Shown here: positions 1 to 62,469 of the stretch, one piece after another
Layout: every line of letters starts with the position of its first letter
How positions within the stretch are numbered: position 1 is the stretch's first letter
Assembly (NCBI GenBank): GCA_964385465.1
Contig: CAYLPJ010000028.1
Location: 11,789 to 75,788, forward strand
Length of the DNA: 64,000 bases
Origin: an uncultured Planctomycetaceae bacterium
GTDB lineage: Bacteria > Planctomycetota > Phycisphaerae > SM23-33
Direction: 5' to 3'
Made by a program: the position numbers and the translations under genes
Notes under the pieces: generated by a model
Seen by the model: only the letters and a program-made list of their open reading frames with translations
Told to the model about the DNA's origin: nothing
The model's database searches: none

Positions 1-3000
1 CGTAGCCCACCCCGCCGTCGCCGTCGTCGAGCGTCAGCCGGACGGTGTAGTCCCCGGCCGTCGTCGGCCGATACGCGAGCGTCGGCTCCGTCGCGCTGGC
101 CACGAGCTGGCCCTGGTCGTCGCGGACCTCCCACAACCGTGTGACCGGGTCGACGGCCTTGGCGGGGTCCACCCAGCCGGCGCAGGAGAAGGAGAGCTGC
201 TCGCCCTCGGTGGCGGTGCGGTCGCCGCCGATGTCGATCTGGGAGGGGGCCGTGTTGGCGACCTCGACGGTCCCCGTCCGGACGGTCTGGCCGCTGTCGT
301 CGTCGCGGACGGTCAGCGTCACCGTGTAGGTGCCGTCGTCGGCGTACGCGTGCGCCGCTTCGCGGGTCGTGGCGGCCGGGCTGCCGTCACCGAAGTCCCA
401 CTCGTAGGTCAACGGGTCGGCCGGAGCGTCCGAGGCACCGCAGGAGAACTGTCCCTGCTGAGTTTCCCCGAGGCCCGTCGGGAGCTGGAACGAGTACACC
501 GACGGGTCCGCGTTTGCCACGTACGCCGTCCCGTACGCCTCCGCCGTGGCGCCGTCGTCGTCGGTGACGTGGAAGACCGCGTCGTATTGGCCGTCCTCGT
601 CGTAGTAGAAGCCGTACGACGCGTCGAGCGTGGCGGTGTGGGTGGTATCGTTGACAGAGAACAGCCCGTGATCCAGCGGGCAAGGCCCCGAGCCATCGCC
701 GGGATCCACGGCGAAGCTCCAGAGGTGTGCCGTCGCGGCCGTGAGCTGGCCGGACGGGTCCGTGACGGTGAAGACCAGCGGGGCGACCGCATCGTTTTCG
801 TCGCCGTAGAAGGACGGCGTCATGTCGGCGAACGGTGCGACGCCTTCCACGACCACCCAGAAGGAACTCGTATCCGGGTCGCCCTCGCCGGCGGAACTGA
901 CAGTCACCGTGCAGCGGTGCTCGCCCAGCTCGTGGTAGACGTGGGACAGCGGGAGCGAGCGGCTGGTCGTGTCGAATTCCTCCAGCGGACTGCCGTCGCC
1001 GTAATCGACCACGACGTGCCACGTGTCGTCCCCGCCATCGGTGATCATCGCGGTCCGCGTCAGCGCGGCGCCTTCGTCAACGGTTGCATTGCCCCAGGCC
1101 GTCACCTGCGGCGCTACGTCGGAGACGAAGACCTCGAAGCTGTCGGTGTACGTCCCGCCCGGCGCGGCGGCCGTGCATGTGACCGTAAAGACCCCGGACT
1201 GCCGCGGGGCGAACGAGAAGCTCTGGTTCGTGGTGCTGCCGGCATCGTACGGGCCGCCGGTAACGCTCCACTGCCACGTGTAGCCGGCGCCCGGGTCGGC
1301 CACGTCGGCGCTGGAGGCGACGGCCTGGCCTTCGTCCGCCACGGCGTCCCAGCCGGCCCGCAGTTCCCGGCGGATGCCGAAATCGTGCTCCTGCACGAGC
1401 GGTTCGGAGACCAGGTTGAGTGAAGGAACCGAGGCCGGCGCCGTCCGCCGCCCCCAAGCGGGAACGACCGCATCGACCGGGTAGTTGCCGTTGGGCAGGG
1501 GTGCCAGGGCGTAGAAGCCGTTGGAGTCGGTCAGCGTCCACTGCTCGTTCGACTGCCAGATGCCGTCGGCGTTCAGATCGGCGAAGACCTTCACGTTTTC
1601 CAGCGGCAGCTCGAGGCCGTGGCCGAAGGCGCCGTCGCCGTCGGCGTCGTCGTAGATGAACCCGTAGACCCCGCGGGCGCCGCGGAGGTAGTCGAAGGTG
1701 TAGGCGTCGCTGCGCCCCTCGCCGCTGCCCGCGCCGCCGTTCTCCGTGGCCACCACGGTGATCCGATGCACCAGGTTCGTCCCCCCGGGCGCGGCGTCCA
1801 GATACAGCGTGCCGTCGGAGACCCAACCGCTGACCCCGCTGCCGGCGGGGGTGCGCACCTCGTAGACGAGCTCATCATCCGGCGGCCCGCCGGCGTTGTA
1901 CATGAGGTTGTACAGGTTGCTCAGCACCGCGTCGCCGTTGGCGTCGGCCAGCAGGGGCGGCAGCATGCTCCACGCCGGTCCCGCGTTGGCGGTGTGCTCG
2001 ACGTCCGCGAACGCGGCCCCTCGCTGCTCGATCATCTCGATCATCAGGTCGTGCGCCTGTTCGTCCAGCGGGTTGTCGCGGACGTCCAGCAGCCGCAGCG
2101 CCGGCAGGGGGGGCTCGGCGGAGACGGCCAGGATCGCGTCGGCCACCACCGTGCCTCCCGCGCCCGCCGTCGTGACCGACACGGCATTGCCCGAGGGGTC
2201 GCCCAGTTCGAAACGCCCCAACGGCTGCCAGGGCCCCCCGACGGCCAGCCCCGACGCGCCGAACCGCTGGTTCACCGTGACGTCCGCCGACGTGACGCCG
2301 CCCACGGTGTACACCACCGACGCGCCGCTGCCCTCATGACCGTGCCACCGCGCGTAGAGGTCGTACGTGCCGCACGCGTCGCCCAGGTCCCAGCTCGCCG
2401 TGCCGTGGACCTCCCCCGGCTCGTTGGCCAGGTAGTGGTAGGCGCCCTGCCATGCGGAACTGCCCGTCCGGCTGTGCCACCACAGGTCATGGGCCGTGCT
2501 GAACGCCGGGTCGGCGTCGTCCACCACGAACGCCCCGGCCAGCGGAGACAGGTCGGTCACGCCGTTGCCTCCGAGCCGGAGGACGGCGAGGTCGTGCAGG
2601 CCCGCCAGCGGCGTTACGTCCGTTATCTGGTTGCCCGACAGGTCGAGCACAACCAGTTCCTCGAGCCCGGCGAGGTCGGCGGCGCTGAGCAGGCTCGCGT
2701 CCTGGATGCTCAACAGCCGCAGTTGGGTCAGGGGGGCGAGGGCCTGCACGTCGTGGAGGCCCGGGTTGCCGTCCAGCAGAAGCCCGCGCAGCATGCCGAG
2801 CCCGACCGGATGCCCCGTGCCCCCTTCGACCGCCGGCGCCAGCGGGCCGAGGTACATCACGTTGTTGTCCCGCAGGTTCAGGAAGTCCATGTTGGCGGCG
2901 TGCTGAAGTCCGCCGAGGCCCGTGATGCCCAGGCCGGCCGCGTGCAGTTCGACCAGCCGCCCCATGTCGCTGGCGCGGACGGGCACGGTGAATTCGCAGC

Positions 3001-6000
3001 CCCGCAGGCCGATGCCCAGTGCCTCACCGACCGCCTGGCGCAGCCCCGCGTCGTCGATTTCGACGACCGGATCGACGACGGTCGGGGGGGTGCTGATCAG
3101 CCTCTCGCCCATCGGCGGGGGGGTGAGGGATTCGGCGGGATCGAGGTCGTGGACCTCCACGTGCTCCCCGCGGAACGTGTCGAGCCCGCTTCGGCCCCAC
3201 ATGCGGTCGAGGTGGGCGCCGCCGATAAGGATGTCGTCGCCGTCGCCGCCATCGAGGCGGTCGGTATCGGTGCCCGGTGTCGTCGCCCCCTGGGCGGGGG
3301 GCAGGACCTGCACGGTCACCTCGAGCGGGACGCTGCGCGTCGGGTCGGGTTCGTAGAGGCGCAGCAGGTACTCGCCGGCCTCGAGTCCGCGCAGATCGGC
3401 TGCGGGTACACCGCGCAGGGCTACCGAGCCGTCCGCGCCATAGAGGTCGGCCAGCACGCCGCTGCTCCGCAGCCCGAGCAGCCCCGTGCCCGGCGCGACG
3501 GCCGGGGCGTCGGCGAGGACCTGCACATCCTGGGCCATCAGCCGCAGCGTCACCCGCGACCAGCCCCGCTGGAGGGCGTTGCGAACGACTTGCGTCAGGT
3601 CCGAACCGGAGAACGTGATCCGCTGCGTCTCGTCGGCCGTGGAGACCGCTACGGTGTCAATGTACGAGGACGGGCCGGTCACGTCGCCGACGGTCACGAG
3701 CCCGTCGCCTTCGGCCCCGAGCATGTAGAGATGCACCTGCCCCGCGCCGGGCCCGCAGTCCAGGATGGTTCGCGGCTGGCGGGTGCTGCTGAACGTCCAC
3801 AGCGTGGTGCCCGAGCCGACCGCCGAGTCCCCGAGCAGCCAGAGATCCTCGCCCGCGGCGGCGATCCAGGTGTCCTCGGCGGCCCAGGTTTGCGGCGCGG
3901 CCATCGCGATCGTGCCCGTGCTGAACCCCAGCGTATCCGGGCCGGGGGTGTCGGCAACGTACCAGAGCGCCTGGCCCTCGCCGGCCATGTCCGTGATGCT
4001 GCTGCCGATCTGCCCGCAGTCGCTGAGCGTTTCGCCCAGGCAACTCCAGAGGCGCGTTTCGGTGCCGGCGCCGACGACGACGTAGAGGCGCCCGTCGGCA
4101 TCGAGCGTCGTTGCGCTGAACTCGGGCGTCGGCTCGGGCATTCCGGCCAGCAGGTGGGCGTGGTCCGCCTGCGGCAGCGGATACGTGCCCCCCGTCGTGC
4201 CGTCGCTGCGCCACAGGTGCAGGTCCCAGGTCGGATCGCCCGTGCCATCGCGATCCCAGCCCAGGAAGTAGAGGGCGTCGCCAGCCACGGTCAGCGCCGT
4301 GGGCAGGCCGCTGCCGGCGCTGCAGAGGTTCATGAACCGGGCGGCGGGGCTCACGCCGTCGCAGGACCACAGCTCCGTCTTGTAGCCGGAGTCGTAGCCG
4401 CGGAAGTACAACTCGCCGTTGAAGACCGTCGCGTGCTCCAGCAGCCAGCCCTGGGAATCCGATTCCGCGAAGGATCCCATCAGTTCGGAAGTCGGGTCGA
4501 ACCCGTCGTTTGAGTACAGCTCCCAGCCCGCCCCGTCAAAGGTGGTGAAGAACAGACGCGTATCCGACGCCATCAGCGCTTCGACGCGCTCGTCATCCAC
4601 TACGGCCCAGTCCTGGATGTCGTCGACAGCCACCCGCAGCATTGCCGCGCCGCTGCCCGCCTCGTAACCGAAGTAGACGTGATCGCCCAACCGCACGAGG
4701 CCCGTCGTGAACTGGCCCGTCTCCGGCAGGTCGAGCATCTCCGTCCCCGCGGCCGTGCCGTCGGTATACCACAGTTCCTCGCTGCCACCGGACTCGGCGG
4801 CGAAGAACAGCCCCGAGCCGACCGCGAGCATCGGCCCGAAGGTCGTGCCGGCCGCCCCCGCGGTGATCTCGTCGATCAACTGCGTCCCTGCCAACGTCCC
4901 GTCGGAGACCCACAGTTCCCGCCCCGAGCCGTCGCTTTCGGCGGTGAAGTAGAACCGTCCGTCGGCCGGGACGATCTCCGCCGGCGCGTGGAAGCCGCTG
5001 ACCGGGAGGATCCGCCCGTCCAGCTCGAGCGTGACGTTCTCCAGGACGGCCGGATCGGCGGCGGCCTCCAGGAGGCTTGCCAGGTCGACCTCCAGCACGC
5101 CGTGGTAGTCGGCGTCGGAGAACGTCCCGAGGCGCATCTCACTGACGGTCGTCGCGCTCATGGAGTCGACATCGACGTGCCCCGCGACGCCGCCAAGGCA
5201 GACCGACCGGTCGTTGACGGCTCGGGGCAGCACGCGGAGCAGGTCGCCCGGCTGGGCGTCGCCCAGCGTGCGGAAGCGGTACCACTGCTCGTGCTGGTCG
5301 GCGGGCCAGGAGTGCGTGTACTCGACGGGCTGGCCCGTGCCGGCGTCGATCAGCACCCCGCCGACGCCGGGGAAGCTGCGGTTGTCGATCGGCTCGGGGG
5401 CGAGCCAGTCCGGCAGGGCGAGCCGGCGGGGCGAGCCATGGATCGCGTAAATGCTGCCCGCATGCGCGAGCGGCTGTGCCCCGAGCCCGTCGGCGTAGCC
5501 GGCGCCGACCAGGACGTCGTCGCACCCGTCGGCGTCCAGATCGATCCCGCCGGCCCGGCTGAGCGTGCCGAACCAGTCCCCGCTGACGGGCCCGGCGACG
5601 GTGGCGACGTCCGTAAGCCCGTCGGCGTCCAGGTCCGCCCCGTCGAGGGAGAGCATCACCTCTCCGCCGCGGCCCGCCAGGTCCCAGACGATGTGCAGGC
5701 TGCCCTGCACGCGGGAGTCCACGAGCGTTCCGTCGACGCTGATCGTCTGGCCGAGGAAGCCGACGGCCAGGTCGGCCGCGCCGTCGCCGTCGAAGTCGCC
5801 GCCGGCGACGCTGACGGCGCCGGTGACCTCGGCTTCCTCCGGCAGGCTGCCCGGCGCGTGACGCCACAGCGCGACGTCGGCATCGGCCGACCGCAGCGGC
5901 GTGGCGTCGGCGGGCGGCACGGCGGCGGGGGAGCCGTAGAAGACCAGCAGCCCGGCCTCGTCACCGTGGCTGCCGCCCTCGCCGGCGTCGAGGAGGACGA

Positions 6001-9000
6001 AGTCCGCGTAGCCATCGCGATTGACGTCTGCCAGCGACACGACCTCGGTGCCGAGCGCCCAGTCCTGCACGAGGCATCGGGCGTCGCCGTCGTCGCCGAC
6101 GGTGACCACGCCGGTCGCGCCGCCGGCGACGACGTACAGGCGGTCCACGTAGCGGTCGTCCTCGCCGGCGGTTGACAGGCGGTACTCGCCGGTCCGCAGA
6201 ACGAGCACGTCGTCCCGCCCGTCGCCGTCCACGTCGGCGACGGCGGTGCGGATGCCGGCCGAGGGGACGCGTTCGATGGACCAGTCCGCGGCGGCATCCC
6301 CCAGGAGCTGCTGCTTGACACCCGAGGTGTCGCTCGTCGTCTCCCGCAGGAAGGCCGTCGCCGAGTCGACGGGCGAACCCGTCTGCAACGCCGCAGCCAC
6401 GCTCTCGCCCGTGAGTACCCGCGCGAAGTACCCCGTCGGGCCGGCCTGGGGGAAGCTGATCATCAAGTCCGCGTTGCCCCCGCCGTCATGATCCAGAATC
6501 GTTGCGGCCAGGGCGCCCTGCGGATAAATGCTGTCGGGAACCGTCGCAACCAGCGGCAGTTCGGACAGCGCCACGCTTCGCTCCGGCCGGGTCGTCCCGG
6601 CCAGCAGCGCCACCTCCGTTCGCGAGTCGCCGCCGCTGTAGCGGTGGAAGGCGATGTCGGCCAAGCCGTCGCCTGTGACGTCACCGACGCCTTCGCCGAC
6701 CGACCAGCCATTCAGATCGATGATGATCTGGGCGGCGTCCGCGACGGACTGCACGCCCGCCAGCCGCACGGGCCCGAGCAGGATGCAGGCGGTCTCGTAG
6801 CCGTGGACGAGGACGTCCTCAAACCCGTCGCCGTTGACGTCGCCGACCGGGCGGTTGCCGGCCAGGCCCTCCAGCGCGGTCGAGCCGGTCACACGACCCG
6901 CCATGCCGATGTCGCGGTCGCCGGCGTTGAGGTCCATGTCGGTCGCGCCGGCGGGATCGGTCAGGCGGGGGCTGGCCAGCGGCAGCTCGAACGCCTCGGC
7001 CGCCGGAAGCGGCGGCGTGGCGGCGTCGATCAGTTCCCGGGCGTGGAACACGTGGGAAGCGGCCCCCCAGCGGTCGGGCAGGCCGAAGTCGGCCTCGCCG
7101 TCGCCGTTGACGTCGCCCAGGGCGACGGGGCCTCCGGCCAACAGCGAGCCATTCTCTGCGGCGTACCACGGCCGGGCGGGTTCGAGGACCATGTTGGGCG
7201 CGTCGAACGCCTCCGGCGCGGTCCAGTCGCGGCCATCGGCGAGGAAGATCTCGTAGACCTGGTGCATCAACCGGGTGCCGTCCTCGCTGACGCGGTGGGT
7301 CAGCTCCCGGGCGGGCGCGGCCAGATCGCCAAGGCCGTCGCAGTCCACGTCGCCGGGGGCCAGCAGGCCCAGTGCATCGACATGATGGCCGGTGGGCGCG
7401 GCGCCGGCGTTGGCGAGGAAGATCCAGCTCTCGTGGGCGGCCTGGCCTGCGCGGCGGGCGGAGACGACGAAGTCTTCCGGCGTTCCACCGCCGTCGAGAT
7501 CGCCCGCCGCCGAGACGGTGAACCCGTCCGCGTCGTCGCCGAGCACGTGCTCGGAGAGCCACTGGAGATTGGCCGAGCCCGTGTTGGTCAGCAGGACCAG
7601 CTTGTCCGTGGCGCGGGTGGGGCACTTGCGACGGATGACGCCGAACTCGTCGAGCCCGTCGCCGGTGACGTCCCCGACGCACGCCACGACGCTGCCCAGC
7701 TCCCCCTCCGGGGCCAGGCCGGCGTACACGGAATACGCCATTTCGTCGCGCGGGCGCACGGACCGCAGCAGGACGTCGTCGACGTGCCAGCCCTCGAAAT
7801 CGTTGAGCATCCAGCCGTTCGTGTCAAACGTGAAGCGCAGGCGCAGCGTGTCCCCGGCGTCGAAGCCGCCGAGGTCCGCGCACGCCCACTGCCAGGCCCC
7901 CGTGCCGTCCAGCAGCCCCTCGCCGTCGTTGCTGAAGATGCGGACGCCGGGCTGCCAACCCAGCCCGTCCGGCTTGACGTCCAGCCAGACCTCCGCCCGG
8001 TCCCAGTGCGACGGCTCGCCCTGCGTCTGCAGGAAGTAGCTGAAGCTCAACTCGACGTGGGCCGCCGCCTCCGTCAGCGTGACCTCCGGCAGGATCAGCT
8101 CGCCTTCGCTGTGACCGACGTCGTAGTTGTGGTCGGCCGCGCCGTAATAGGCCGCCCGGCCCCCGCGGTGCCCGGCATCGTCGGCGCGGAAGTCTGCAAC
8201 GGTCCAGAGCCCGCTGGCGGTCGTGCCTACCGACAGGAAGTCCTCGAAATCGGCGAACAGCAGGCCCGCGTCCGCGTCGTGCCACATGTCCGAGCGATAC
8301 GTCAGGCGGGTCGCCCTGCCCTTGTGCTCGTCGGCGGACCAGGCCTCGCCGACGACCAGGTCGTCCCGCGAGTGGGCGTCGAGGTCCCCGGCAGCGATGG
8401 ACAGCGGGAAGTCGAACGCGTTGACCACGCCGTCGGCCTCGGCGACGACGTCGATCTCGTCCGGCCAGGAGGTCCGTCCGCGGAGGTAGTACACCCCGGC
8501 GAGGCCGTACGGCTGGTCGCCGTGATTGCTGACCATGATCGCCAGGTCGTCCGGCCCGCCGAGGGAACTGCTGATGTCGCCGGAGACGATCTGGCAGCGA
8601 ATCCCGAACGACTCGCCGCTGACGGGGGCGGGCAGTTTCAGCGCGACCGTCCCTCCGCCGGACAACCGAAGGTACGCAATACTGGGCCGCACGTAGTGCT
8701 GTGGGTGGCTCTGGGCGCCGTCCGGAACGTCCTCGCTGTGCCCGAAGTGCTCTTCGGCGGCGTGGATGAAATCCGCCTTGCCGTCGGAATCGACGTCCGC
8801 CAGGGGCACCAGCACGGCACGCGCGCCCGGCCCGCCTTCGGGGTGCAAGTCGGCCGTCGACGCCGCGACGTCCGTGACGTCCCCGACGCGGCTGTCGAAC
8901 TGTATCTGGTAGCGTCCCATCGGCTCGCACGGATCGTCGCTGCTCTGGCCGCTGGTGAAGCCCAGCATCGCCGCGGTGGAGTCGGCGGCGAACTCCACCG

Positions 9001-12000: not shown

Positions 12001-15000
12001 CGGCCCCTGAACCACCGTAGTACCAGACCTTGTTGGTCGATCTGGCGTAGGCCTTCCAGGCGTCGTCGCCGGGCAGGCCGTATGCGTCCTCCAACAGCGC
12101 GCCGTCACGCGTGTACAACAGGTCATCCCCGCCGTTGCCGTACAGGAAGTCCAGCCCCGTCCCGCCGTAGAGCTCGTCATCCTGTCCGCCGCCGAGAACG
12201 CGGTTCATGCCGGTGTCTTCGAGCGTGCGCCCGTCGTCGGGCTCGCTGTAGACCCGGCCGGTGACGGCGTCGATGAACACCCCGAAGGTCGCGCCGTCGG
12301 GCTCGGCGGGGGGGTGTCCCTGCCCATCCAGGCCGGTGAACGCGCCGTCGACCTGCTGGCGGGGGTGGAAGGACCAGGCGTAGAGGAAGTTGCCCGGCGC
12401 GCCCCCGGGGCCGATGTTGTCCCCGCCGCCGATCAGGTCGTCGTTGCCCGCGCCGGCGAACAGGCGGTCCTGGTCCCCGCTGCGCCCGCCGCCGTGGCGG
12501 TCCCCGTGGAGCCGGTCGTCCCCTCCGAGGCCGTACAGCCAGTCGCTGCCCGCTCCGCCGTCGATCAGGTCCCGCCCGGTCGAGCCGAGAACCACGTCAT
12601 CCCCGCCACCGCCGTCAAGCCGCGCGACCCAGTCGCGGCTGCGCAGAGCCAGTTCGCCCAACTCCAGCGCCGTCTCGCCGGCCGCGAAGCCGATCACGTC
12701 GTCCCCGCCGAGCCCGGAGATGGCGAACTGCTCGAGCGTCGCCTGCCCGTCGGCGTCGCGCCAGTCGGCGGCGAAGGCGGCCCCGCCGGCATGGAGGTTG
12801 TACTCGACCAGGAGGCGACCGTCCGGCGCCTGGCTCAGCAGGATCACGTCGTCGGCCTGCGTGCCGTTGATCTGGAGGATGTCCGTCCACAAGTCCTCGC
12901 CGGCGTCGTCGGAGCCGCGGTTGCCGCCGTGGCCGTTCAAGGCCGACTCGCCGTAGGCGTCGTAGGCGGTATCGAACGTCAGGAAGTCGTTGCCCGCCCC
13001 GCCGTAGAGCCAGTCGGCCCCGTCCTGGCCCTCCAAAACGTCGCTGTCGGCGCCGCCCCGGAGTTCGTCCTCGCCGCCGCCGCCGAAGAGGTGGTCTTCG
13101 CCCCCGTCGCCGTAGAGCAGGTCGGCGGCGCCGGAGGTGTCCGCCGACGTGCTCGGACCGTAGTTCGCCCCGTCGAGGTAATCGCCGTACAGGTCGTCGT
13201 TGCCCGAGCCGCCGATCAGCACGTCGCGGCGCCGGTTCCCATAGAGGATGTCGTTGCCGCTCTGCCCGTCGAGCCAGTCCCCCCAGCCGGTCCCGTCGTC
13301 GCCGTCGGGCGCGAAGGCGTAGAGGTAGTCCCGCCCCGGCCCGCCGAAGAGGCGCTGGCCGGCCTGCACGGCCCCGGTGCCCGTGCCGCCGTCGCCGTAG
13401 AGCGAGTCGCTGCCCTCCTCGCCGTAAAGCCGATCCACCCCGCCTCCGCCCTTGAGCGTGTCATTGCCCGAGCCGCCGCGGAGCACGTCGTCGCCGGCCG
13501 CGCCGGTCAGCTCATCCATGGCCGAGCCGCCGTCGAGGTAATCGGCCCCGGTCCCGCCGTCGAGGTGGTCGCTCTGGCCGCCGCCGAAGAGCCAGTCCGT
13601 GTCGTCGCCGCCGCGGAGCGTGTCCGTGCCGTCCTCCCCGCCGGCGATGCTCAGTCCGGCCACGATCGCCGGGGTGATCCGCGCGAGCGGGGGCATGGCG
13701 GCGAGGTAGCCCGAGGGCGCCATCGCGTCGGCGGAGTCCTCGTGCGGGGCGCGGACGAACAGCGACGCGTCGGACAGATCGAACGCCTCCCACTCGTAGA
13801 CCATCGAGCCGCCCCAGATCACGTCGCACCCGGGTCCGCCGCTCAGCGCGTCGTTGCCCGGGCCGCCGACGATGAGGTCGCAGCCGGCGCCGCCGTTGAT
13901 CGTGTCGTTGCCGGCCCCGCCGACGATCAGGTCGTAGCGGTCCCAGCCCCCGTCGTTGCCGCCTGCGCTGATGTCGTCGTCGCCGCCTTCACCGTAGATG
14001 ACGTCGCGCCCGTCGCCAGTGACGATCGTGTCGCCGCCCGCGCCGCCGTGGACCACGTTGTCGCCGTGTCCGGCCAGGATGGTGTCCGCACCCTCGCCGG
14101 CGTGAATCGTGTCGTCGCCGTCGCCGGCCTCGACGTGGTCGTCGCCGCCGCCGGCGTCGATCGTGTTGGTCCCGCCGTAGGCGTGGATCTCGTCCCGAAG
14201 ATCTCCGGTGACGATGACGTCGTCGCCGTCGTCGGTGTGGATGACGTTGCGCCCGCCCCCGGCGTGGACGGTGTGGGGGGCGTCCTCTCCGGCGTCGCTG
14301 CGGAGGTCGATGACGTCGTCGCCGTCGCCGGTGGTGACGTTGTCGGCCCCCGCGCCGGCCCGGATGCGGTTGGTGCCGGCGCCGGCGTGGATGACATCGT
14401 TGTCGCTCAACCCGGGCGGCAACGAGCCCGGCCCGGCGTGAATCTCGTCGTCGCCGTCGCCGGTGGTGATCTCGTCGTCGCCGGTGAAGGCGTGGATCAC
14501 GTTGCCGCCACCCCCCGCGGTGATGACGTCGTCGCCGAGGTCGCCATAGACGGTTTCGCTCCAGCATCCGGCCCCCGCGTCCAGGATGTGGATGGAATCC
14601 GGCTCGCCGGCGTCGGCGCTGCTGGAGCCCGGCGTGGTGGTCGTGCCTGCAATCAGCGTGTCGCCGCCGTCCTGGCCGTACAGCTCGTCGCTGCCGGGCC
14701 CGCCGTACAGCGTGTCGTCCCCGCCGCCGCCGTGAAGCACGTCGCGCCCCCGCCCGCCGTCGAGATGGTCGGCCTCGTCCCCGCCGTCGAGGTGGTCGTT
14801 GCCGCCGTCGCCGTGCAGCTCGTCGCTGCCGCCCTCGCCGTACAGCAGGTCCATTCCGTCGCCGCCGTGAAGCTCGTCGGCGTCGGCGCCGCCGTGAAGC
14901 GTGTCGCCGCCCTCGTCGCCGCGGAGGACGTCCCTGCCGTCGCCGCCGGTGAGATGATCCGCACCCATCCCGCCGGACAGCTCGTCGTCGTGACCGCCGC

Positions 15001-18000
15001 CGAACAGCTCGTCGTCGCCCATCCCGCCGTGGAGGGCATCGTCATCGTCGCCGCCGTGGAGTTCGTCGTCACCCATGCCGCCATCCAGGCGATCATTGCC
15101 CGAGCCGCCGTAGAGGCGGTCGTCCCCCGCGCCGCCGGTCAGGACGTCGTCGACGACGTCCGGCCCGGTCAGGCCGGCGTTCCCGTCGTCGCCCTCGCCG
15201 GCCGAGAGCAGCTCGCCCGTGCCCGCGGCGAACGTGGCCGAGCCGGCAGAGAGAATGTCGTCGCCGTCGCCACCGTCGAGGAGGTCGTGGCCGGTCCCGC
15301 CGATCAGCACGTCGTCAAAGTCGCCGCCGTTGAGCGTGTCGTCCCCGGCGCCGCCGTCCAAGCAGGCCGGCGCCCCGCCGGCCGTGAGCGTGTCCGTGCC
15401 CGCGCCGCCGACAAGATGCACCGGCAGGGCCAGCCGTCGGTCGGCCGCGAGGAGATCGTCGCCGTCCCCGCCGTCCACGTAGATGCCCGTGACGCCGGTG
15501 TAGGTCTGGCGCAGCCCGAGGGTCTCGACGGTGACTTCGCCATCGCCGCCGCGGCGCAGTTGCACCACGTCGTCCATCGCGTCGTCGCCGGCCGGGCCGC
15601 CCTGTCGCAGGTGGCTGTGCGGGCCGATGTGCACCAGCAGCGTGTTCGCCTCGAGGACCTCGCCGTCCGGCAGGGCGAGCGGTTCGGTGAGCACGCTGGC
15701 CAGGACTGGGTCGGGCTCCTCGGCCTGCTCGGGCCGGTCGGGCCGTTGGAGGTCATACTCCACGAGCGTGACGTGCCCGAAGTCGACGCTCTTCTCCCAG
15801 GATGTAAACAGCAGGTCGACGCGGACGTAAGCCTCCAGGCCCGCCTCGACCTTGCCGCTGACGTCGAAGATCCAGATCGGCCCGAGCATGAAGTTGTCGG
15901 CCAACTCGTCCAGCCGGACCTTGCCGTCTTCGTCGGGGTCGTTGAGATTGAACTCGACGCTGGCGTAGACGCCTCCGCCGACGCCGCCGCGCGCCACGCC
16001 GAGGTTCAGCTCCGCCGAGGCCACCAGCGAGCCCCGCAGCACGACTTCCGCGTTGTCGCGCCCGCCGGCGGCGTCGGCAACGTAGATGCCGTTGAGCAGG
16101 TCCAGCGGATCGCCGGTGCGGGCGACGTCGAAAATGCCCTGCGTGTCGTAGCCGAAGTCGAAGTCGATCTCCGCGCCGATCGTCCCGGCGATGCGGCAGC
16201 CCAGCGGGCCGATGATCGTGAAGAACTGGCTGTAGGTGAACTCCAGGTCCAGCGACGGCATGTTGTAGGTGATGAGGTCCACGTCCTCCCGGCCGAGCAG
16301 GAGCTGCATCACCATGGCGGGGTCGTCGATGAGGGGAAAGGCAAAGCCTTCGCCGTCGGCGTCGTCAGCGGCCTTGGGGATCGAGTCGTAGTACGAGCGG
16401 ACCTCGGGCCCGGTGGCGTCGAGCGATGAGGGGATGGGCGCAAGCGGCTCGGGCTCGCCGAGTTTGCCCGCGGCATCGTAGCTCATCGTGTAGCTGCCGA
16501 TCGGCATCCATACGCTCTCGCCGAATTGCGGGATGCTCAGCAGGTCGATTACGTCGGCGACGGCCTGGACGTACCTGGCGGCCCGCTCGGCCCCGCTGCC
16601 GAACAGCGAGGCCAGGTCCAGCAGCGTGATGTCCCGTCCCATGAGGTCGCTGATGCCCGCCAGCGGGGCGGTCAGGGCGTCGACGATGGGCTTGACCGGC
16701 TCGATGATCTCGTTGATCTCTCCAAGCAGGTTGCCGAACGCCCCGCTGAGATACTCGCCCACGTTCAGGCGGACGTCGCGGAATGCGATGGTCGGCTGCG
16801 GGTCGAGAATGTCGTCCAGGCTGCCCAGCGGCCATGCCACGTGCAATTCGCCGGCCACCGACGGCAGCATGCCCGAGCCCAGCGACGCCTCGATGTCCAG
16901 GTGCAGCCCGCACTCGGGATTGGTGAGCGTCGACTCGATGATGTCCGCCCCGGCCGTGGCGAGTTCGGAGATCGTCAGTCGGCCGTCGCCGCTGGGCTCG
17001 ACGATGTCCACCTGGAACTCCAGGCCCAGGCCGTTGAACTCGCCGCCCATCAGCGCGGCGGTCAGGTCGAGCGGACCCAGCTCACCGGCGGCGTCCAGCG
17101 AGGTCACCTGCACGTCCGCCGCCACCGTCACATCCGGCTGGTCGTCGATGTTTCCGACGTTGAAATACACGCCCTCGGAGCGGCTGATCCCGAAGCCCAG
17201 GTGCATGTCCAACGTCACGTCGACGCTGACGGAGCCGTCCACGGCCAGGCCCAGGCCGGGCACGTTCGCGTCCAGGACGAAGTCGTCGCCGGCGAAGCTC
17301 CAACCCGCCCCCAGCCACATGTCGTACTGCACGCGGTCCGTGTGCAGGTTGACCGTCTCGGGGATCATGAGGACGTCATCGAGCGTGGTCTCGCCGTCGG
17401 CGTTGGCGTCCTGGAGCCACCCCAGCCCGCCGGTGCCCAGCGCGTCCCACAAGGCCTGACGGATCGCCTGGGGCGAGTCGCCGACGGCCTCCAGCGTATC
17501 GACGAGCTGGGGCCGCATCTGCCCGACGAAGTCCGCGGCGTCGCGAAGCTGCGTGCCGATGATCGGGAACTCCAGGCCGAAAAGCTGGCTGTCCAGGGAA
17601 TCCTGGAGGATGGCGAGCATGCTGTCGATGCCGGCGGTGAGCACGCTGAGGTCGCTGCCGAAGTCCAGGCCGTCCATGTGGGCGCGGATGGTCTCGCCCA
17701 GATCGCCCGGGGTGAACTGGATATCCGGGTCGGTCAGGTCGTCGAGGGTCCAGACCAGCTCCGCCAGCTTGTGGTCGCGCGTGGGGAAGTACAGGGGCAG
17801 TTCGGCCCACGCCTGTTCGGGATACCCGCCGGAGGGGGCGTGCGTGACGTTGACGGTCAGGTCGCTCAGCAGCGGCTCGGCGTCCGCCAGCGTGCGGACG
17901 TCGCCGTCGCCCCCGAACTCGAAGTAGTGCCTCCCGTCCCCGTTGCCGTCCGTCAGCCCCGCCGAGAGGGTGGCGTCCAGGTAGCACGCGCCGTTGTCGT

Positions 18001-21000
18001 CGTCGGCGTTGCCTACGTACATTCCCAGCGCCCCGACGGCCGCGGCGAACTCCAACTCCTCGCCGGCGACGTTCACGTGCGCAACGGCGCCCGTGCTGTC
18101 GTAGACGAACGGGCGTGGATTCGTCGGGTCCGCGAAGTCCACGCCGAGATGCAGGCCGAGGTCCACGTCGGCCGTGACGTCGAGCTGTCCGTCGTTGCTG
18201 AAATCGAACATGCTCGTCAGGCCGGGCACATCGAGCACGCTCAGGTCCAGCGCCAGCGGGAACGTTCGCCCCGCGTTGCCCTCGGCGTCCTTGAGGATGG
18301 TGCTGAAGTCCAGGTCCAGCCGGAGCGCCGGGCCGGCCGGATCGATGCTCAGGCCGACCGCCTCGGCCGCCAGGCCCAGCGCCTCGGCCAGCTCGCCGGA
18401 CAGCTCTTCCAGCAGCGCCTGCGTGCTGAGGTTCACCTCCGCCACGCGGTCGGTGAGGTCGGCAACGAAGCCGAGCATGTCATCGAGCCTGCGCCCGATC
18501 AGCGGCAGCGTCTGGCCGAAGGGTCCGGCTTGGGCGATGGCCCCTGCGGCCCGGCCGGCCATGCCCAGCATCCCCTGCACGTCCGCCAGGGCGAGCGGCT
18601 GAAGGTTCAGCAGCTTGTCGAAGCCGTCCAGCACGGATGCCAGGCCGGCGAGATTGAGTTCGACGCGTGTGGGGAACGTCGAGCCGTCGGGCGCCGGCGG
18701 CAGGCCCGGCGGGGGAGGGGGGGGATTGATCGAGAAGACATCGCTGGAGTGCAGCTCGATGGCGGCGTCCGTCTCGATAAGCTGGCTGACGTCCACCCCG
18801 GCGATCTGGTCGTCCGCCTTGAGCGGCAGGCGGGCGTCCAGCGCCCCGCCGACGTCGAGCTGGAGCAGTCCGCTCGTGCCGTCGCTGAAGTTCCCCAACT
18901 CCCGCAGCAGCGCGTCCAGCGAGACGTCGGCGGCGCCCGTCCGCAGGGCAAGCTCGGCCGTCAGCGAGGCCTCGCCGTCCTGGATGCCCAGTTCGATCAT
19001 CTCGCCGAGGACGAACGTCGCGTCGATGTCGTCGGCCTCGACGCTCAGCCTCGCGTTCCACTCCATGCCGCTCTGGATGTATACGTGCTTCTCGAGCGTG
19101 TCGCCGTGGAGCGGCGCGGTCTCGACCACGCCATCCCCGTCGACGTCCTGGCCCAGCAGGCCCGGGGCCACGCCAGCCATCGAGCCGCTCGCGGCGCCCA
19201 CCTTCAGCATGGCGTCCTCGTCGGGCGCCGGGCCCGGATTCGACTCGGTGAAGGTGATCCGGTGCGTCTCGCTGTCGAGGGCGATCGTGAGCTTCCCCGC
19301 CGCCGTCGGCGGAATCGCGGCAGTCAGCTCCGCCGCGAGGTCGGCGGGCCTGTCCGTGCCCGAGACGCCAGAGAGGTCGAGCCCGACGGCCGTGCCGTCA
19401 CGCAGCGTCACGAGCACGTCCGCCTGCCCGGCCGGGCTGAGAAGCTGGTCCCACTTGTCGAGCGTCAGCTCGTTGAGAGTGGGCCAACCGTTCTCGGCGA
19501 CGGTGAAGCCGAGCTTGCGGAGGTCCATGACCATCGTGAAGGCTAGATCGACGTCCCCGGTCAGTTGCCCTGAGCCGGACGTGCTGAAGCCGCTGATCGG
19601 AGAGATCTCCAGTGAGCCCAGATCCAACGGCGACGCCAGTTCGGGGAGGCTGTCGGCGACGTGGAACTCGTACAGCAGCGCCGGTGCGGTCGCGCCGCCG
19701 GGCAGGGCATAGGCGGCGTCGTAGGTAACGGCCGTCAGCGCCGGCAGCAGGTCCCGCAGGGCCTGTGCGGTGTCGAAAGCGGGCAGGCCGGGCTCCGCTT
19801 CGAGCAGGTCGGCGACCTGCGCGTTGAACGCGGCGCGGGGGTTGATCGCATCGCCGAGGCGTCGCCCGGTCGTCGGCAGGACCACGTCGAAGGCGTCCGT
19901 GGCGGCCAGATCATCCAGCCACTGGCCGATCTGCTCGAGCACGCCGGCCACGCCCCCGGCGGAGAGGTCCTGGAAGCGGCGCAGGTCCTCGCCGGGCGCG
20001 AACGTGACCGTCGGCAGGGCCGGGTCGAAGAGGTCGCCGTCGAAGACCGTCGCGGTCACGCCGGCGCTGAGCCCGTCGATGCCGGTGGTCACCGCGGCCG
20101 GAAGCTCGATCTTCAGGAAGTTCGGCGGATCGTGGGGATGCGCCGGATCCGGGTCGCTGCGCGGGGTGAACTGGAGGGTCTCATCGATGGTGTGCGCGCG
20201 CATGCGGGCGGGCGTGATCCGCTCGCCGTACGGGCCCATGTCGAGCACCGCGCCGGTCACCCCCGCCGTCAGCGCCGCGCTGCCCCCGGAGAGGGCCAGC
20301 CCCAAGAACCCCAGGCGTGCGCCCAGGGACAGGTCGCTCACGTTCAGCGCCGCCGAGGCCTCGAACCGCGTGATCTCCGCGTAGGCGATGTCCCCCGGGT
20401 CGTCGGCTGTCAGGTCGATGCCCAGGTGCAGACCCAGTTCCAGCGACGCCGTCAGGGCGGCGTCGATCACCCCGTCCAGGATGAGTCCCGCGTCGAGCAG
20501 CTCGTTGGTGAAGTCCGACCTGGCGGCATGCGTCACGCTGTGGGAGAGGGTCCAATCGAGCTGGAGCTCGTCCTCCGCACCGGCCGTTGCCGAGGCCCCG
20601 ATCGCCGCCGCCAGCCCATCGATGGTCGCGGGGTCGGCGGAGTTCAGGTAGTCGGCCATCGGCTGGTGGACGTGGTCCCGGAAGAAGGCGGGCATGTCGA
20701 GCAATTGGCCGATAGAAGCCGGCTGGCCCTCGTTGACCGCGGCGACGGAGACGCCGGGCAGCGCCCGGCCCGCTGGACCCAGCGAGTGGGCCAGGGAGCC
20801 GAGCGTCGCCAGTTCCTCCGCCAGGTTGCGCAACGCCGCCACTTCCTGCGCCGTCAGAACGCGTGACGGCGACGGCGCGGCGAACTCGACGCGCATCTCG
20901 CCCGCCGTCGCGTCGTCCGTCGTCGCGATGTCCGCGCCCAGGGCGCTGTTGATCTGCGAGACGAGCGAGGGATCGCCCACACGCAGCGCCTCCAGCGTGA

Positions 21001-21997
21001 GCCCCGCGGCGACGGCTGCGGAGTCCAGCGCCTCGGCCTGCGCCACCACGTCGGCATTGGCGGCGGGCAGGACCAGGTCGGCCTGCATCCCCGCCCGCAG
21101 GCCGCCGCCGCTGAGTGTACTCAAGGCGAGCACCTGGATGCCCCCGCCGGCCGGTGCGGCGGTCTCCAGCACCGACAGCACCCAATCCGTCGCCCAGTTC
21201 GCCGGCTCGGCGACGCTGGTCCACTGCTGCCAGTGCGGCGCGTTCGATTGGTTCAGCCACCCCGCCGTCTCGGCATCCAGCAGGCCGCTGCCCGCGGCCG
21301 GGCTCAGTGTGGCTGCGTCGTCCACGGCCGCCTGAAACAGCTTCAGCGCCGCGGCGCTGTGCGGGTCGGCCGCGCCGTCCACCTCGACTGGTCGCCCTCG
21401 GGCGTCCACGAAGCCAAGATAGGCAAGACGCTGCTCGGCCCGCATCTGTGAGAGCATCCCCCCGGCCGGCTCGACCAGGGCCGTGCCATCGCCGACCGAC
21501 GAGAACCCGCCGTCTATCTCGACCGTTGCCGTCGCCGTCGTCGCCGCTCCGCCGACGTCGAGGAAGTCGTAGGTCAGCGAGAGAGTGCCCTGGAACCCGT
21601 CGGCCGCGGGGTTCGCATCCGTGCCGAGCCCCGACACCGTTGCCGGCGCGAGGTACAGCCGACCGGTCGCGGCGAAGGGGCGCCCGTCCACAGCGTCGCC
21701 GTAGAACAGCCTTCCGACGACCTGGTTGTCGGCGAGCAGGTCCCATGCTGCCGAGCCGGGGCTTTCGCGGAGCGTCACGGCCTCATCGGCAGTGCTGAGC
21801 GTGACGCCCTGAAGCTGAAAGCCGCCCTGCGCATCCCCCTCGAGTGAGCCGATGTCGACAAGAAAAACGTCCCCGGTGCGTCCGTGGACGTCGCTAAGCA
21901 AGATGCGCGGTTCGAGCGGCTCGAACTGCGCCTGGAGCCGCTCTGAATCAACTCTCCCTGTTACCCACGCGAACACCGACCGCGCGTCGAACGCCAT
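1..21997 (-). CDS. Giant multidomain surface/adhesin-like protein, at least 7,332 aa, C-terminus beyond the left window edge. N-terminal LEPR-x-LL-like motif, PG-binding-like module, about 1,000-aa RTX (GGxGxDxL) block, FG-GAP/VCBS block, LRR block, Cna-B/SdrD-B-like domain, at least four PKD-like domains
   Basis: Reverse-complement translation in the frame whose codon first bases are congruent to 1 mod 3 gives protein-like sequence with very high GC3 at every place sampled. Sampled positions were 79, 334, 1588, 2731, 5830 and 21445-21997. The frame is open from the ATG at 21997..21995 (preceded by an in-frame TAA at 22099..22097 with no other ATG between) to position 2. The ORF track lists no real-looking minus ORF here, as expected for an ORF with no stop inside the window. 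All listed plus-strand ORFs over 1-22000 have antisense-type composition. N-terminus reads [36 protein letters not shown]. Representative motifs: FG-GAP '[17 protein letters not shown]', RTX '[35 protein letters not shown]', LRR '[36 protein letters not shown]', PKD '[17 protein letters not shown]' and '[15 protein letters not shown]', Cna-B '[36 protein letters not shown]'. Confidence 0.8.
   Translation of the reverse strand, partial: [7332 protein letters not shown]
4500..8900 (-). repeat. FG-GAP/VCBS-type repeat block inside giant gene 1
   Basis: Minus-strand translations such as '[19 protein letters not shown]', '[15 protein letters not shown]' and '[22 protein letters not shown]' recur throughout this interval. 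Confidence 0.5.
12350..15500 (-). repeat. RTX / hemolysin-type Ca-binding nonapeptide repeat block (about 1,050 aa) inside giant gene 1
   Basis: Minus-strand translation shows hundreds of GGxGxDxL/I/F-type nonapeptides, for example '[82 protein letters not shown]'. The underlying DNA is a recurring GGCGGC/GACGAC-rich motif. Confidence 0.65.
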
Positions 21998-22039
21998 GGA
22001 TGTATCCTCGCTTTTCCAATCGCCATCATGGGAGTTCCC

Positions 22040-22068: not shown

Positions 22069-22299
22069 TCGATATACGCCAATGCAAGAAGGGAACTTAC
22101 GAGCACACAGCCTTGTCGCGATCGATGGGAATGCCAGCCCCGCGCGGCCTGCGGTGCAACGTGCGCTCCACGTGGAGCCCACCCCGATTCACCCCCCCCT
22201 GGCCGCGAGGTCGCGTGGGTTCGAGTTCCACCTATGATTCGTGACGTGCACACAGGACGGCACGAAGTGTCGGCGAGCGTCCCCAAGAGGCGGGACCGT

Positions 22300-22736: not shown

Positions 22737-23885
22737 ATGGTCGAACCCAAGCGAACCTTCGCGGGCCTGGCCGTCGGCCCCAGTGCCGACGGCGTCGACG
22801 CCGTCCTCGCCGAGGTCACCGGCAAGGGCGAGCACCTCGCCGTCGCGCAGAAGCACGCCCTTACCCGGCCGATGCCCGAGGCGCTCGCCAAGCAGCTCCG
22901 CACCGTCGCGGGCGGGTGGGCCGAGCCGGCCGCGGGCATCGCACGGCTCGACCGGGACCTTGGGGCCTTCGTCGCCGAGACCGCACGCAAGCTGCTGCGC
23001 GACGCGGCGGCGCCGGCAAAGCACATCGCGGGCGTGGGGCTGATCGGTTACCCGGCCGCGCAGACCGCCCCGGCGGCCGCCGAGGGCAAGGGCTGCGGGC
23101 TGGAGTTGGGCTCGGCATCGCTGGTGGCGCGGGAGACGGCCCTGCCGGTGGTATCGGGCTTCTCCGCCAGCGATTACGCCGCCGGCGGCGTCGGGGGGCC
23201 GGTCTGGGCGTGGTGCGACTGGCGGATGTTCCGCCACCAGCGCCTCAGCCGCGTCGTCCTCCAACTGGGGGCGATCTGCACTCTGACGTTCGTGGGCAGC
23301 GACGCGGCCGCCTGCGACGTCGTCGCCTACGACACGGGACCGGGAACCGTCCTGATCGACGCGCTGGCCGCGAGGCTCTTCGACGCACCCATGGATGCCG
23401 ACGGTGCCGCCGCGGCACGAGGAGAGATCGACGAGGGACTGCTCAACGAGCTGATGGCCGGGGAGTTCTTCCAGATGCCCGCGCCGAAGAGGACGCATGT
23501 CGGCGAGTGGGGCGAGCGGGTGTTCCAGCGGCTGGAGATGATGGCGGGCAAGCACCGCTTGGATGCCGCCGGGCTGCTGACGACGGTCACCGAACTGACC
23601 GCCCGGGTCGCCGCCCGGGACGTGCTGGCGCTGACCGAGCGCCCGCACGAGGTCATTCTCGCCGGCGGAGGGGCGTTGAACATTCACCTCGCCGGGCGGA
23701 TCCGCAAGCTGCTCAGCCCGTGCAGCACCTACACGGCCGAGCGGTACGGTCTGGACCTCCGCGGGCACACGGCCACGGCGGCGGCGATGCTGGCGGCGGC
23801 GAGGCTGGACGGCTTCCCCGCCCATTGCCCCCGGGCCAGCGGCGCTGACGAGGCCGTCCTGCTCGGATCGCCGTGGGTACCGTGA
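22737..23885 (+). CDS. anmK: Anhydro-N-acetylmuramic acid kinase
   Basis: 382 aa. The N-terminal 'FAGLAVGPSADGVDAVLAEV' matches the AnmK 'GxMSGTSxDGIDxAL' motif. 'FSASDYAAGGVGGPVWAW' matches the 'DFRxxDxAAGGQGAPL' segment. The C-terminal half is ASKHA-kinase-like. Confidence 0.75.
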   Translation: MVEPKRTFAGLAVGPSADGVDAVLAEVTGKGEHLAVAQKHALTRPMPEALAKQLRTVAGGWAEPAAGIARLDRDLGAFVAETARKLLRDAAAPAKHIAGVGLIGYPAAQTAPAAAEGKGCGLELGSASLVARETALPVVSGFSASDYAAGGVGGPVWAWCDWRMFRHQRLSRVVLQLGAICTLTFVGSDAAACDVVAYDTGPGTVLIDALAARLFDAPMDADGAAAARGEIDEGLLNELMAGEFFQMPAPKRTHVGEWGERVFQRLEMMAGKHRLDAAGLLTTVTELTARVAARDVLALTERPHEVILAGGGALNIHLAGRIRKLLSPCSTYTAERYGLDLRGHTATAAAMLAAARLDGFPAHCPRASGADEAVLLGSPWVP

Positions 23886-25980: not shown

Positions 25981-27906
<1,926 letters not shown>

Positions 27907-38744: not shown

Positions 38745-38746
38745 CG

Positions 38747-42011: not shown

Positions 42012-42431
42012 GCGCAGCAGGCGGGAATTCGACGGAGACGGGCGCTGCATTCGGGGGTTGGAAAGGGCAGGAAGGGAGGCGGGCGCCGGGGGGTGACGGC
42101 TCGTGCCGGCCGGGGGCGCTCCCGCCGAGCTCACCGATCCCCGCGGGCGTCGCCCGGGCTTTTCGGTAGACAACCCATGCGCGTGCGTTGTCTGTATGGA
42201 CGGACCCGCGGCGCCGGGAACGGGAACGTCGGCCCTGCCGGGCAAAACAGAAAATCGATGGAAAGCGGGAACCGTCGGCTGCGTTCGACATCTAACGCAA
42301 AAGCGGCCCGTATGCCGCGGCCGGCCCGGCCGGCTCGCCGCGCCAGGCCGGTTCGTTGCCGGTCGGGATAAGTGTGCGAGCCATGGCATCTTAGCGGGCG
42401 CGTGCCCAACAGGAGGCCTGTGGAAATCGCT

Positions 42432-60507: not shown

Positions 60508-60607
60508 GGTCTCTCCGTGCGGGGGTTGCCGGCGGCGGCCCCGGCGGGGCGGTCACCCGGCGCGGGCGGCGCCGACCCGGGCGGGCGCGCCGCGTTCCGG
60601 CGGGGGG

Positions 60608-61045: not shown

Positions 61046-61079
61046 GGCAGGTCCTTTCGTGCCGCCTGGCTGCCGGCGG

Positions 61080-62411: not shown

Positions 62412-62469
62412 CGATCGTCTCTCCCTTCTGTCGCTTCGCCTGCGGACGCCGCCCGCGGGCGGGCGTCGC

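Follow-up and report, generated by a model that had tools for sequence, protein, structure and literature searches.

A giant gene of at least 22 kb in a Phycisphaerae contig and its probable product, a calcium-dependent surface protein of the LEPR-XLL family

Open reading frame and coding evidence

The window (the whole stretch of DNA that was analysed, 64,000 nucleotides) was taken from an uncultured Planctomycetaceae bacterium (GTDB class Phycisphaerae; assembly GCA_964385465.1, contig CAYLPJ010000028.1, positions 11,789 to 75,788 of the forward strand). Its first 22 kb are occupied on the minus strand by the 5′ part of a giant gene, which is the subject of this report. All six frames were scanned without requiring a stop inside the window. 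The minus-strand frame was open from position 22096 to base 2, where it runs off the left edge, and comprised 7,365 codons with no stop; the remaining five frames of positions 1-21997 contained 12 to 203 stops. Given the position-specific base composition of the frame itself, approximately 87 stops would be expected in 7,365 codons, and the probability of finding none is ~e^-88. The frame that had originally been predicted, open from the ATG at 21997 to the left edge with at least 7,332 residues (aa), was recovered.

Since the window is 70.5% GC, a composition that gives long stop-free non-coding frames (the longest antisense stop-free stretch was 1,944 codons), the coding signatures of the giant frame were checked separately. 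GC content at the first, second and third codon positions (GC1, GC2 and GC3) was ~0.73, 0.50 and 0.92 throughout, in every 1.5-kb bin. The first ATG lies at 21997, downstream of an in-frame stop at 22097-22099, and all residue numbers are counted from it. The visible product comprises 7,332 aa (759 kDa, pI 4.05, net charge -825), and no transmembrane-like segment was found in it. The locus is one real, uninterrupted gene of at least 22 kb encoding a very large acidic protein. Coordinates of this gene, its domains and its principal neighbours are collected in Table 1.

Repeats in the DNA of the giant gene were restricted to degenerate 27/54-bp tandem units (67-82% matches) that correspond to RTX nonapeptides; no high-identity repeats and no sign of repeat collapse or chimera were found in the gene. 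An assembly artefact was rejected on the absence of such repeats and on the existence of collinear relatives of 7,100-7,900 aa, two of which (P0028 and P0021) are intact genes on Mb-scale contigs. More broadly, the gene could be non-functional, as a decaying pseudogene, a chimera of more than one gene or a frame that is open by chance at 70% GC. In keeping with this, the source is evidently a metagenome-type contig, the giant protein is missing from a public protein collection in which the neighbouring DnaK is present, and high-GC DNA yields long shadow frames. We consider it exceedingly improbable, given the stop statistics, the coding GC3 signature that is even along the frame, the curated hidden Markov model (HMM) matches along the whole of a single frame, the collinearity with independent proteins from Mb-scale contigs and the lack of repeats able to cause misassembly.

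Antisense shadows and annotation of the locus

The long plus-strand open reading frames (ORFs) of positions 1-22000 are antisense shadows and not genes, in line with the original prediction. All are in one frame, in which codon position 1 coincides with position 3 of the giant gene. Their codon-position GC (GC1 0.92-0.93, GC3 0.72-0.75) is the inverse of that of the real genes in the window, and this includes the largest, of 1,840 aa. The mechanical ORF list supplied with the sequence gives this shadow and omits the giant ORF, as had been noted, because the latter runs off the window edge.

A public collection of 15 billion proteins was searched with products of the contig. DnaK has a 100% identical entry (P0152), and the first 1,500 aa of the giant protein gave no self-match. 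The deposited annotation is therefore apparently without the giant product, which it probably omits or truncates; this fits the earlier expectation that track-based annotation would mis-call the locus. In practice, ORF tracks that require a stop inside the window, and probably the deposited annotation as well, miss the giant gene and list antisense shadows of 1,000-1,800 aa in its place.

Table 1. Positions of the giant gene, its domains and selected neighbouring features in the window
Feature	Position	Strand	Residues	Evidence and remarks
Giant CDS, 5′ part	2..21997	-		At least 7,332 codons, at least 21,996 nt; no stops, GC3, HMM matches all along the frame
GAGGA Shine-Dalgarno-like site	22005..22009	-		7 nt 5′ of the ATG; upstream sequence GGAAAAGCGAGGATACATCC-ATG
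LEPR-XLL motif, FEPLEPRILLSD	21893..21928	-	24-35	NCBIfam NF012209 LEPR-8K
Ig-like beta-sandwich	21503..21892	-	36-165	AlphaFold2 (AF2), confident
PG_binding_1-like helical domain	21248..21457	-	181-250	Pfam in relatives and predicted fold
Third N-terminal alpha/beta domain	20798..21232	-	256-400	Conserved in 5 relatives; AF2 confidence low
Upstream part of family module	17678..20833	-	389-1440	Collinear with P0001; in ~50 of 150 top relatives; no Pfam or PDB match
Module core	15698..17677	-	1441-2100	Long helices, very long beta-hairpins, EF-hand-like calcium loops
Dense RTX nonapeptide block	11978..15472	-	2176-3340	Pfam HemolysinCabind (PF00353), regular-expression map, 27/54-bp repeats
RTX island	10538..10792	-	3736-3820	HMM and regular expression
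RTX island	9713..9850	-	4050-4095	HMM and regular expression
FG-GAP/integrin-alpha-type beta-propeller repeats	5498..8800	-	~4400-5500	Pfam and DxDxDG calcium loops
ELWxxDGT repeats	4289..4960	-	~5680-5903	NCBIfam TIGR04534, 80.5 bits vs 65
Internalin-like leucine-rich repeats (LRRs)	2531..3031	-	6323-6489	Pfam LRR_4, 45 bits vs 27
Golvesin_C	2132..2527	-	6491-6622	PF25275, 39 bits vs 31.6; also in P0028 and P0021
Weak SdrD_B/CarboxypepD_reg-like beta-sandwich	1457..1660	-	6780-6847	Sub-threshold
PKD-type Ig-like domains, at least 4	2..1303	-	6899-7332	Pfam; last domain cut by the window edge
Antisense shadow ORF, 1,840 aa	6488..12010	+		Largest of five on the plus strand; GC1 0.92, GC2 0.49, GC3 0.74
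AnmK (anhydro-N-acetylmuramic acid kinase, peptidoglycan recycling)	22737-23885	+		Divergent from the giant gene
DnaK	25981-27906	+		About 79-84% identity to Phycisphaerae/Planctomycetota proteins
Second giant gene, 5,492 aa	42563..59041	+		~28 FG-GAP_3 (VCBS-like) repeats; GC3 0.97

Domain organisation from the RTX block to the window edge

HMM matches reproduced the N-to-C domain order of the original prediction, and the sizes that it had given for the RTX and FG-GAP blocks were roughly right. An RTX block of about 1,050 aa had been expected, and a dense block was found at aa 2176-3330. HemolysinCabind passed its cut-off (316 bits in 20 or more stretches) and 39 strict nonapeptides were located by regular expression. 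In addition to the islands of Table 1, a further RTX island is present at aa 6250.

The FG-GAP block, put at about 1,450 aa, corresponds to FG-GAP loops together with ELWxxDGT repeats from ~aa 4400 to 5900. FG-GAP (PF01839) scored 59.4 bits against a cut-off of 22.1 and FG-GAP_3 (PF13517) 42.1 bits against 26.9; 8-9 DxDxDG calcium loops were mapped at aa 4400-5486 by regular expression. Copies of the ELWxxDGT repeat include ELWVSDGT at aa 5694 and ELWYTDGT at aa 5741. These repeats and Golvesin_C had been missed previously and were detected by HMM.

The anticipated LRRs were above their cut-off, and local matches to NCBIfam internalin models were obtained in the same region. The proposed Cna-B/SdrD-B-like domain was not upheld at threshold (SdrD_B, PF17210, 18.3-18.7 bits vs 29.7). 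The claim of at least four PKD domains held: PKD_4 scored 111.7 bits in 3 stretches and PKD 79.2 bits in 4, both above their cut-offs, and K319L-like_PKD matched in 2. In a self-comparison of the protein, an internal PKD repeat (aa 7132-7236 vs 7218-7329) was recovered, and sequence repetition was nearly absent outside the RTX and PKD regions. A LapA-type tandem-repeat adhesin was rejected on this distribution of repeats and on a LapB_rpt_80 score of 16 bits against 45.

Conserved module upstream of the RTX block

No Pfam or NCBIfam match was obtained for aa ~230-2170. A word-indexed search with aa 1-1500 returned a single homologue, P0001, which made the region look orphan (relatives are designated here by P numbers). 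P0001, which comes from a betaproteobacterial metagenome-assembled genome (MAG), is an incomplete sequence annotated 'LEPR-XLL domain-containing protein'; it aligns collinearly with aa 389-1821 (28% identity, E 8e-115). The orphan impression was overturned by an exhaustive phmmer search with aa 1101-2100, in which 1,892 cluster representatives were matched at E<1e-3, 603 of them with E<1e-30. The module-bearing representatives are nearly all 3,000-7,900 aa in length. Among the 150 top matches, the core (aa 1450-2090) was covered in ~145, and conservation reached back to ~aa 400 in about a third. The closest module-bearing proteins are from Phycisphaerae, Planctomycetota and Acidobacteriota MAGs, are mostly partial, and are annotated as hypothetical, LEPR-XLL, RTX-like or S8 peptidase.

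An alignment of the module (A1) contained the motifs LPxIGDxL, DxGxPGLGL, LGFGVSxxDGxYxDTS, PVISDLAGxxxTLLDLA and FGYDTxG, together with an EF-hand-like motif, DPNxDGKVRxxE. Position relative to RTX sequence was also conserved. At least five RTX nonapeptides were present within 700 aa downstream of the module in 110 of 126 relatives; RTX nonapeptides upstream of it occurred in just 4 of 110.

The core was modelled with AF2 (predicted local distance difference test, pLDDT, 77.5; predicted template modelling score, pTM, 0.67), giving long helices together with beta-hairpins whose strands span 14-22 residues. Foldseek returned nothing significant for the core (TM-scores ~0.1). PDB sequences searched by phmmer with aa 1-1200, 1101-2150 and 4100-5100 gave nothing, and a PDB profile search of the core returned RTX flanks and one EF-hand loop only. 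About 1,800 aa of Ala/Leu/Gly/Asp-rich sequence of unknown fold had been described here. The description of the fold stood, with nothing significant from Foldseek; the region is not anonymous, being a conserved module found in ~1,900 clusters. For this module of 650-1,700 aa, which precedes RTX sequence in that many clusters of giant proteins, there is neither a Pfam model nor a structural relative that has been solved.

N-terminal tag

The LEPR-x-LL-like motif of the original prediction was matched by NF012209 at 20.6 bits (cut-off 17), with aa 24-35 aligned to positions 2-13 of the 24 in the model. The motif itself, FEPLEPRILLS, begins at aa 27 of at least 7,332; in 70 relatives the median start residue is 30. 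Their N-termini share a consensus of an Arg-rich run followed by [LF]ExLExRxLLS[AG]D, with 94-100% conservation of the E, L, E and R residues. Counted in two ways, relatives with the tag numbered 61-70. No Sec-type hydrophobic core was found in the 70 N-termini (best 12-residue mean hydropathy, median 1.07). In the AF2 model of the window protein, aa 1-34 are disordered.

A second giant ORF in the window starts MSSFFETPSGPEFVPSFEPLEERLLLTT, which is the same LExRxLL tag; the NCBIfam LEPR-8K model gave no report for this ORF at E<=0.1. Both giant proteins of the window are without the usual basic run upstream of the tag.

Judged by its sequence, the giant protein belongs to the LEPR-XLL (LEPR-8K) family, whose members are giant and contain RTX repeats. 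In the literature found, the family name occurs in passing mentions only, in two papers, with no published function for the family or the tag.

N-terminal Ig-like, peptidoglycan-binding and peptidase-like unit

Residues 1-400 were aligned with five relatives that share this N-terminal unit (alignment A2; P0017, P0002, P0029, P0141 and P0074) and modelled with AF2 (pLDDT 68.5, pTM 0.68). Among the 150 top module relatives, the unit of Ig-like, peptidoglycan-binding and peptidase-like domains is found in approximately 10% (aa 50-250 common to 11-14). The Ig-like domain is similar to the split domains found in two RTX adhesins, FrhA and an Aeromonas RTX protein.

A peptidoglycan-binding-like module had been predicted after the tag. 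On its own, the window copy (aa 187-224) is sub-threshold for PG_binding_1 (PF01471; 13.8-14.8 bits vs 23). The family was matched in all six A2 sequences, comprising the window protein and its five relatives (best E 3.2e-6), and the three-helix peptidoglycan-binding fold is present in the predicted structure. A peptidoglycan-binding-like domain near the N-terminus is thus supported by the family profile and the modelled fold.

For the third domain, relatives carry the motif H-R-x-G-M-x-V-D, one carries H-x-H and one gave a weak Peptidase_M74 match. The window copy is without those histidines (LRAGMQAD; EMRVEF). This is possibly a degenerate LAS/M15-type (muramoyl) peptidase-like domain in which the metal ligands have been lost in the window copy; if the LAS homology is real, the missing histidines mean that this copy is not catalytic. 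An active LAS peptidase in the window copy was rejected on the absence of the motifs.

Giant relatives and full length of the protein

The original prediction held that domain types seldom combined were mixed in this polypeptide, and a unique domain mosaic was considered. It was rejected, as the same combination in the same order recurs in relatives of 6,500-7,900 aa. P0011 (7,814 aa, Joint Genome Institute (JGI), 'ELWxxDGT repeat protein') is collinear with residues 38 to 7102 of the window protein. In P0028 (7,245 aa), P0078 (7,884 aa), P0053 (6,478 aa) and P0021 (7,097 aa), RTX, FG-GAP, LRR/Golvesin_C and PKD domains follow in the same order. P0011, P0028, P0078 and P0021 are collinear over 56-84% of the window protein and share the order N-terminal unit, module, RTX, FG-GAP/ELWxxDGT, LRR, Golvesin_C, PKD, but their identity to it is only 27-55%. 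P0028 and P0021 are each encoded by one intact gene (contigs of 1.48 and 1.36 Mb, respectively), have Pfam sets that match that of the window protein, and are flanked by unrelated housekeeping genes.

Both ends of these relatives show differences. P0011 starts with an S8-peptidase-like segment, whereas the window protein has no such domain. P0028, P0078 and P0021 end in Dockerin_1 domains (C-terminal tails of 60-450 aa), whereas the C-terminus of the window protein lies beyond the window; P0053 has a cohesin. The last residues of the window protein align 360-1,070 aa short of the C-termini of P0021, P0028 and P0078, from which a full length of probably about 7,700-8,400 aa is estimated. No more than 12.9 kb of the 76,935-bp contig falls outside the window. 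Searches for the continuation gave little: the C-terminal 600 aa returned only generic PKD matches (~30% identity) among GTDB genomes, a 60-mer taken from the left edge was not matched exactly in JGI metagenomes, and relatives sought in metagenomes reached ~32% identity at best.

Two side observations were made on these ends. The Dockerin_1 tails and the P0053 cohesin hint that non-cellulosomal bacteria assemble giant surface proteins by cohesin-dockerin pairing. P0011, P0272 and P0273 either open with an S8 serine peptidase in front of the shared N-terminal unit or bear that annotation; N-terminal S8 domains have likewise been reported in giant proteins of Omnitrophota.

The family members NLF31546.1 (P0016; Planctomycetota, annotated LEPR-XLL) and P0001 have in common with the window protein the tag, very large size, the module and downstream RTX sequence; P0016 shares its N-terminal part, module and RTX. 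They differ from it in that the window protein is without the Arg-rich run before the tag and has the extra Ig-like/peptidoglycan-binding/peptidase-like unit between tag and module. A Vibrio sp. protein of ~8,000 aa with LEPR-XLL and RTX sequence has also been noted, with a speculated cytotoxin role (PMC10868602). Likened by description only, it combines the same tag and repeats at similar size, but it is gammaproteobacterial and its RTX sequence is reported to be C-terminal (PMC10868602).

Giant genes were found in all 29 planctomycete genomes of a published analysis, 15 of which have genes of >20 kb, the largest being 36,239 bp (PMC5177795). At a minimum of 21,996 nt, the window CDS exceeds both giant-gene thresholds quoted there (>5 kb and >20 kb), and it resembles those genes in carrying domains suggestive of adhesion and carbohydrate binding (PMC5177795). 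The planctomycete giant-gene papers differ in cataloguing sizes and InterPro domains, without the LEPR-XLL tag or the module (PMC5177795). As cited in the same source, Reva and Tummler (2008) put at >90% the share of bacterial giant genes that encode surface proteins or polyketide synthases/nonribosomal peptide synthetases (PMC5177795). For comparison of size, the 7,478 longest BV-BRC proteins after filtering are all at least 10,624 aa (10.1101/2023.11.21.568195). The giant gene is accordingly a fresh example of a documented kind, from a family that is already catalogued but unstudied.

Function and export

The protein is soluble and very acidic, is dominated by calcium-binding repeats (RTX, FG-GAP and EF-hand-like loops) and binding-type modules (LRR, PKD and Golvesin_C), and is likely to be an adhesin-type protein of the LEPR-XLL family that acts outside the cell, at its surface, and depends on calcium. 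Its parts could act as follows. The disordered tag FEPLEPRILLS would mark the protein for export or sorting, and the Ig-like sandwich, PG_binding_1 fold and degenerate peptidase-like domain would hold the N-terminal end at the cell wall. The 1,700-aa module and a 1,150-aa RTX beta-roll would fold on calcium outside the cytoplasm to give an extended stalk, as is expected from knowledge of RTX sequences. The distal FG-GAP propellers, ELWxxDGT repeats, LRRs, Golvesin_C and PKD domains would then bind ligands, for example polysaccharides or other surfaces. If the relatives are a guide, a dockerin may be present at the unseen C-terminus.

This assignment as a surface adhesin is drawn from domain content, and several points weigh against it. 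The protein is without a classical signal peptide, its best N-terminal hydropathy being far under that of a Sec h-region, and it is without the basic run that precedes the tag in most relatives. Its PG_binding_1 match is sub-threshold, and the module core has no significant structural match. Any type I secretion system (T1SS) signal or dockerin would lie beyond the window, with the C-terminus. No HlyB/HlyD/TolC-type genes were found in window positions 22,000-64,000 (42 kb on the 5′ side of the giant gene), where a 351-aa ABC ATPase was the only candidate, and no secretion genes were found within 10 kb of P0028 and P0021. Confidence in any single export route is much lower than in the adhesin assignment as such.

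Giant RTX adhesins exported by T1SS characteristically have long arrays of near-identical Ig-like domains, RTX sequence beside a C-terminal secretion signal, and linked T1SS genes. The window protein is comparable to LapA, MpIBP, SiiE and FrhA in being giant, acidic and calcium-dependent with RTX and Ig-like domains, but it is without tandem identity, its RTX block is in mid-protein and no T1SS genes are nearby. It could nonetheless be exported by a T1SS in the manner of LapA, MpIBP and FrhA, its C-terminus leaving first by way of an ABC-membrane fusion protein-TolC channel, with the N-terminal Ig-like/peptidoglycan-binding unit serving as a periplasmic retention plug. The large RTX block, the absence of a Sec signal peptide and the resemblance of the N-terminal sandwich to split domains of FrhA and the Aeromonas RTX protein are consistent with this, and a peptidoglycan-binding fold would be a natural periplasmic anchor that explains retention. 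The RTX block (aa 2176-3340 of at least 7,332), however, is not beside the C-terminus, being >4,000 aa from any possible one, and relatives end in dockerin or cohesin domains. The lack of near-identical tandem Ig repeats, the failure to see LapG or LapD genes, and the missing HlyB/HlyD/TolC-type genes in the window and within 10 kb of P0028 and P0021 argue the same way, and the conserved LEPR-XLL tag would be left without a role. On balance this type I route seems unlikely.

Export as a weapon was also weighed, that is, a secreted RTX-type toxin or lytic effector that acts on other cells by pore formation or cell-wall degradation, a role put forward for certain giant proteins of predatory bacteria; we regard it as very unlikely. 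Cytotoxicity has been speculated for the Vibrio protein with LEPR-XLL and RTX sequence (PMC10868602), and a preprint by West-Roberts ties giant proteins to cell-wall degradation (10.1101/2023.11.21.568195). The module core consists of very long beta-hairpins, and gasdermin and MACPF pores are among its best-ranked, though non-significant, Foldseek rows. A peptidoglycan-binding fold is joined to a peptidase-like domain in the N-terminal unit, and some relatives have LAS-type His motifs or N-terminal S8 peptidases. Against these stand an NCBIfam RTX_toxin (NF033943) score of 193 bits vs 1000, from the repeats only, the absence of a hydrophobic pore-forming region and of an acyltransferase neighbour in the window, the missing LAS catalytic histidines of the window copy, fold matches that are not significant, and the dominance of binding-type domains in the sequence. 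An RTX pore-forming cytolysin of the HlyA/CyaA type was rejected outright, with NF033943 below its cut-off, no pore segment and no acyltransferase nearby.

For the adhesin-type surface protein preferred here, one further possibility concerns how it would leave the cell. The tag, the peptidoglycan-binding unit and the beta-hairpin module could be parts of one undescribed device by which diderm bacteria export and anchor giant surface proteins, a proposal to which we attach little credence at present. It has two versions. Inverse autotransporters (type Ve, intimin/invasin) have a Sec signal, a periplasmic peptidoglycan-binding domain, a 12-stranded outer-membrane barrel (IAT_beta) and a C-terminal Ig-like passenger. 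The protein may be self-exported in a manner formally like theirs, with a peptidoglycan anchor, a barrel and a passenger; alternatively, a new pathway with an N-terminal signal may replace both the Sec peptide and the C-terminal T1SS signal. If such a device existed it would be widespread, given that both giants of the window are tagged and the module is present in ~1,900 clusters. Family members of 0.8 MDa have neither a Sec signal nor an adjacent T1SS, and their tag, module and export route are undescribed. The locus offers a clean, uninterrupted and non-repetitive member, beside a second tagged giant gene, with which the tag and the module could be defined.

Neighbouring genes

The 739-bp intergenic region between AnmK and the giant gene was scanned for promoters and terminators; the scan was empty, with no sigma-70-like match. 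The position of AnmK beside a giant protein with a peptidoglycan-binding fold may be coincidence. The named proteins nearest to DnaK (79-82% identity) are of Phycisphaerae/Planctomycetota origin, and on this evidence the source belongs to Phycisphaerae. Other genes in the window encode an ABC ATPase, a hydrolase, a GT2 protein, an RNA methyltransferase, a GH106-like protein, an M16 peptidase, PaaK-like ligases, an ACT protein and a POR/IOR-type oxidoreductase.

Long minus-strand ORFs over the second giant gene (for example 48407..58729, 3,440 aa) are presumably shadows. Upstream of that gene, three plus-strand ORFs (38531-39271, 39184-40284 and 40460-42169) have coding-like GC3 in parts and gave no Pfam match. 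When translated from the start codons given in the list, the ORFs in 38531-42169 are extremely Arg/Pro-rich, so their starts or frames have probably been mis-set. Positions 59185-63967 of the minus strand encode two PaaK-like AMP-ligases, an ACT-pair protein and POR/TPP-type oxidoreductase subunits, and this cluster looks like an indolepyruvate/phenylacetate (aromatic amino-acid) catabolic module.

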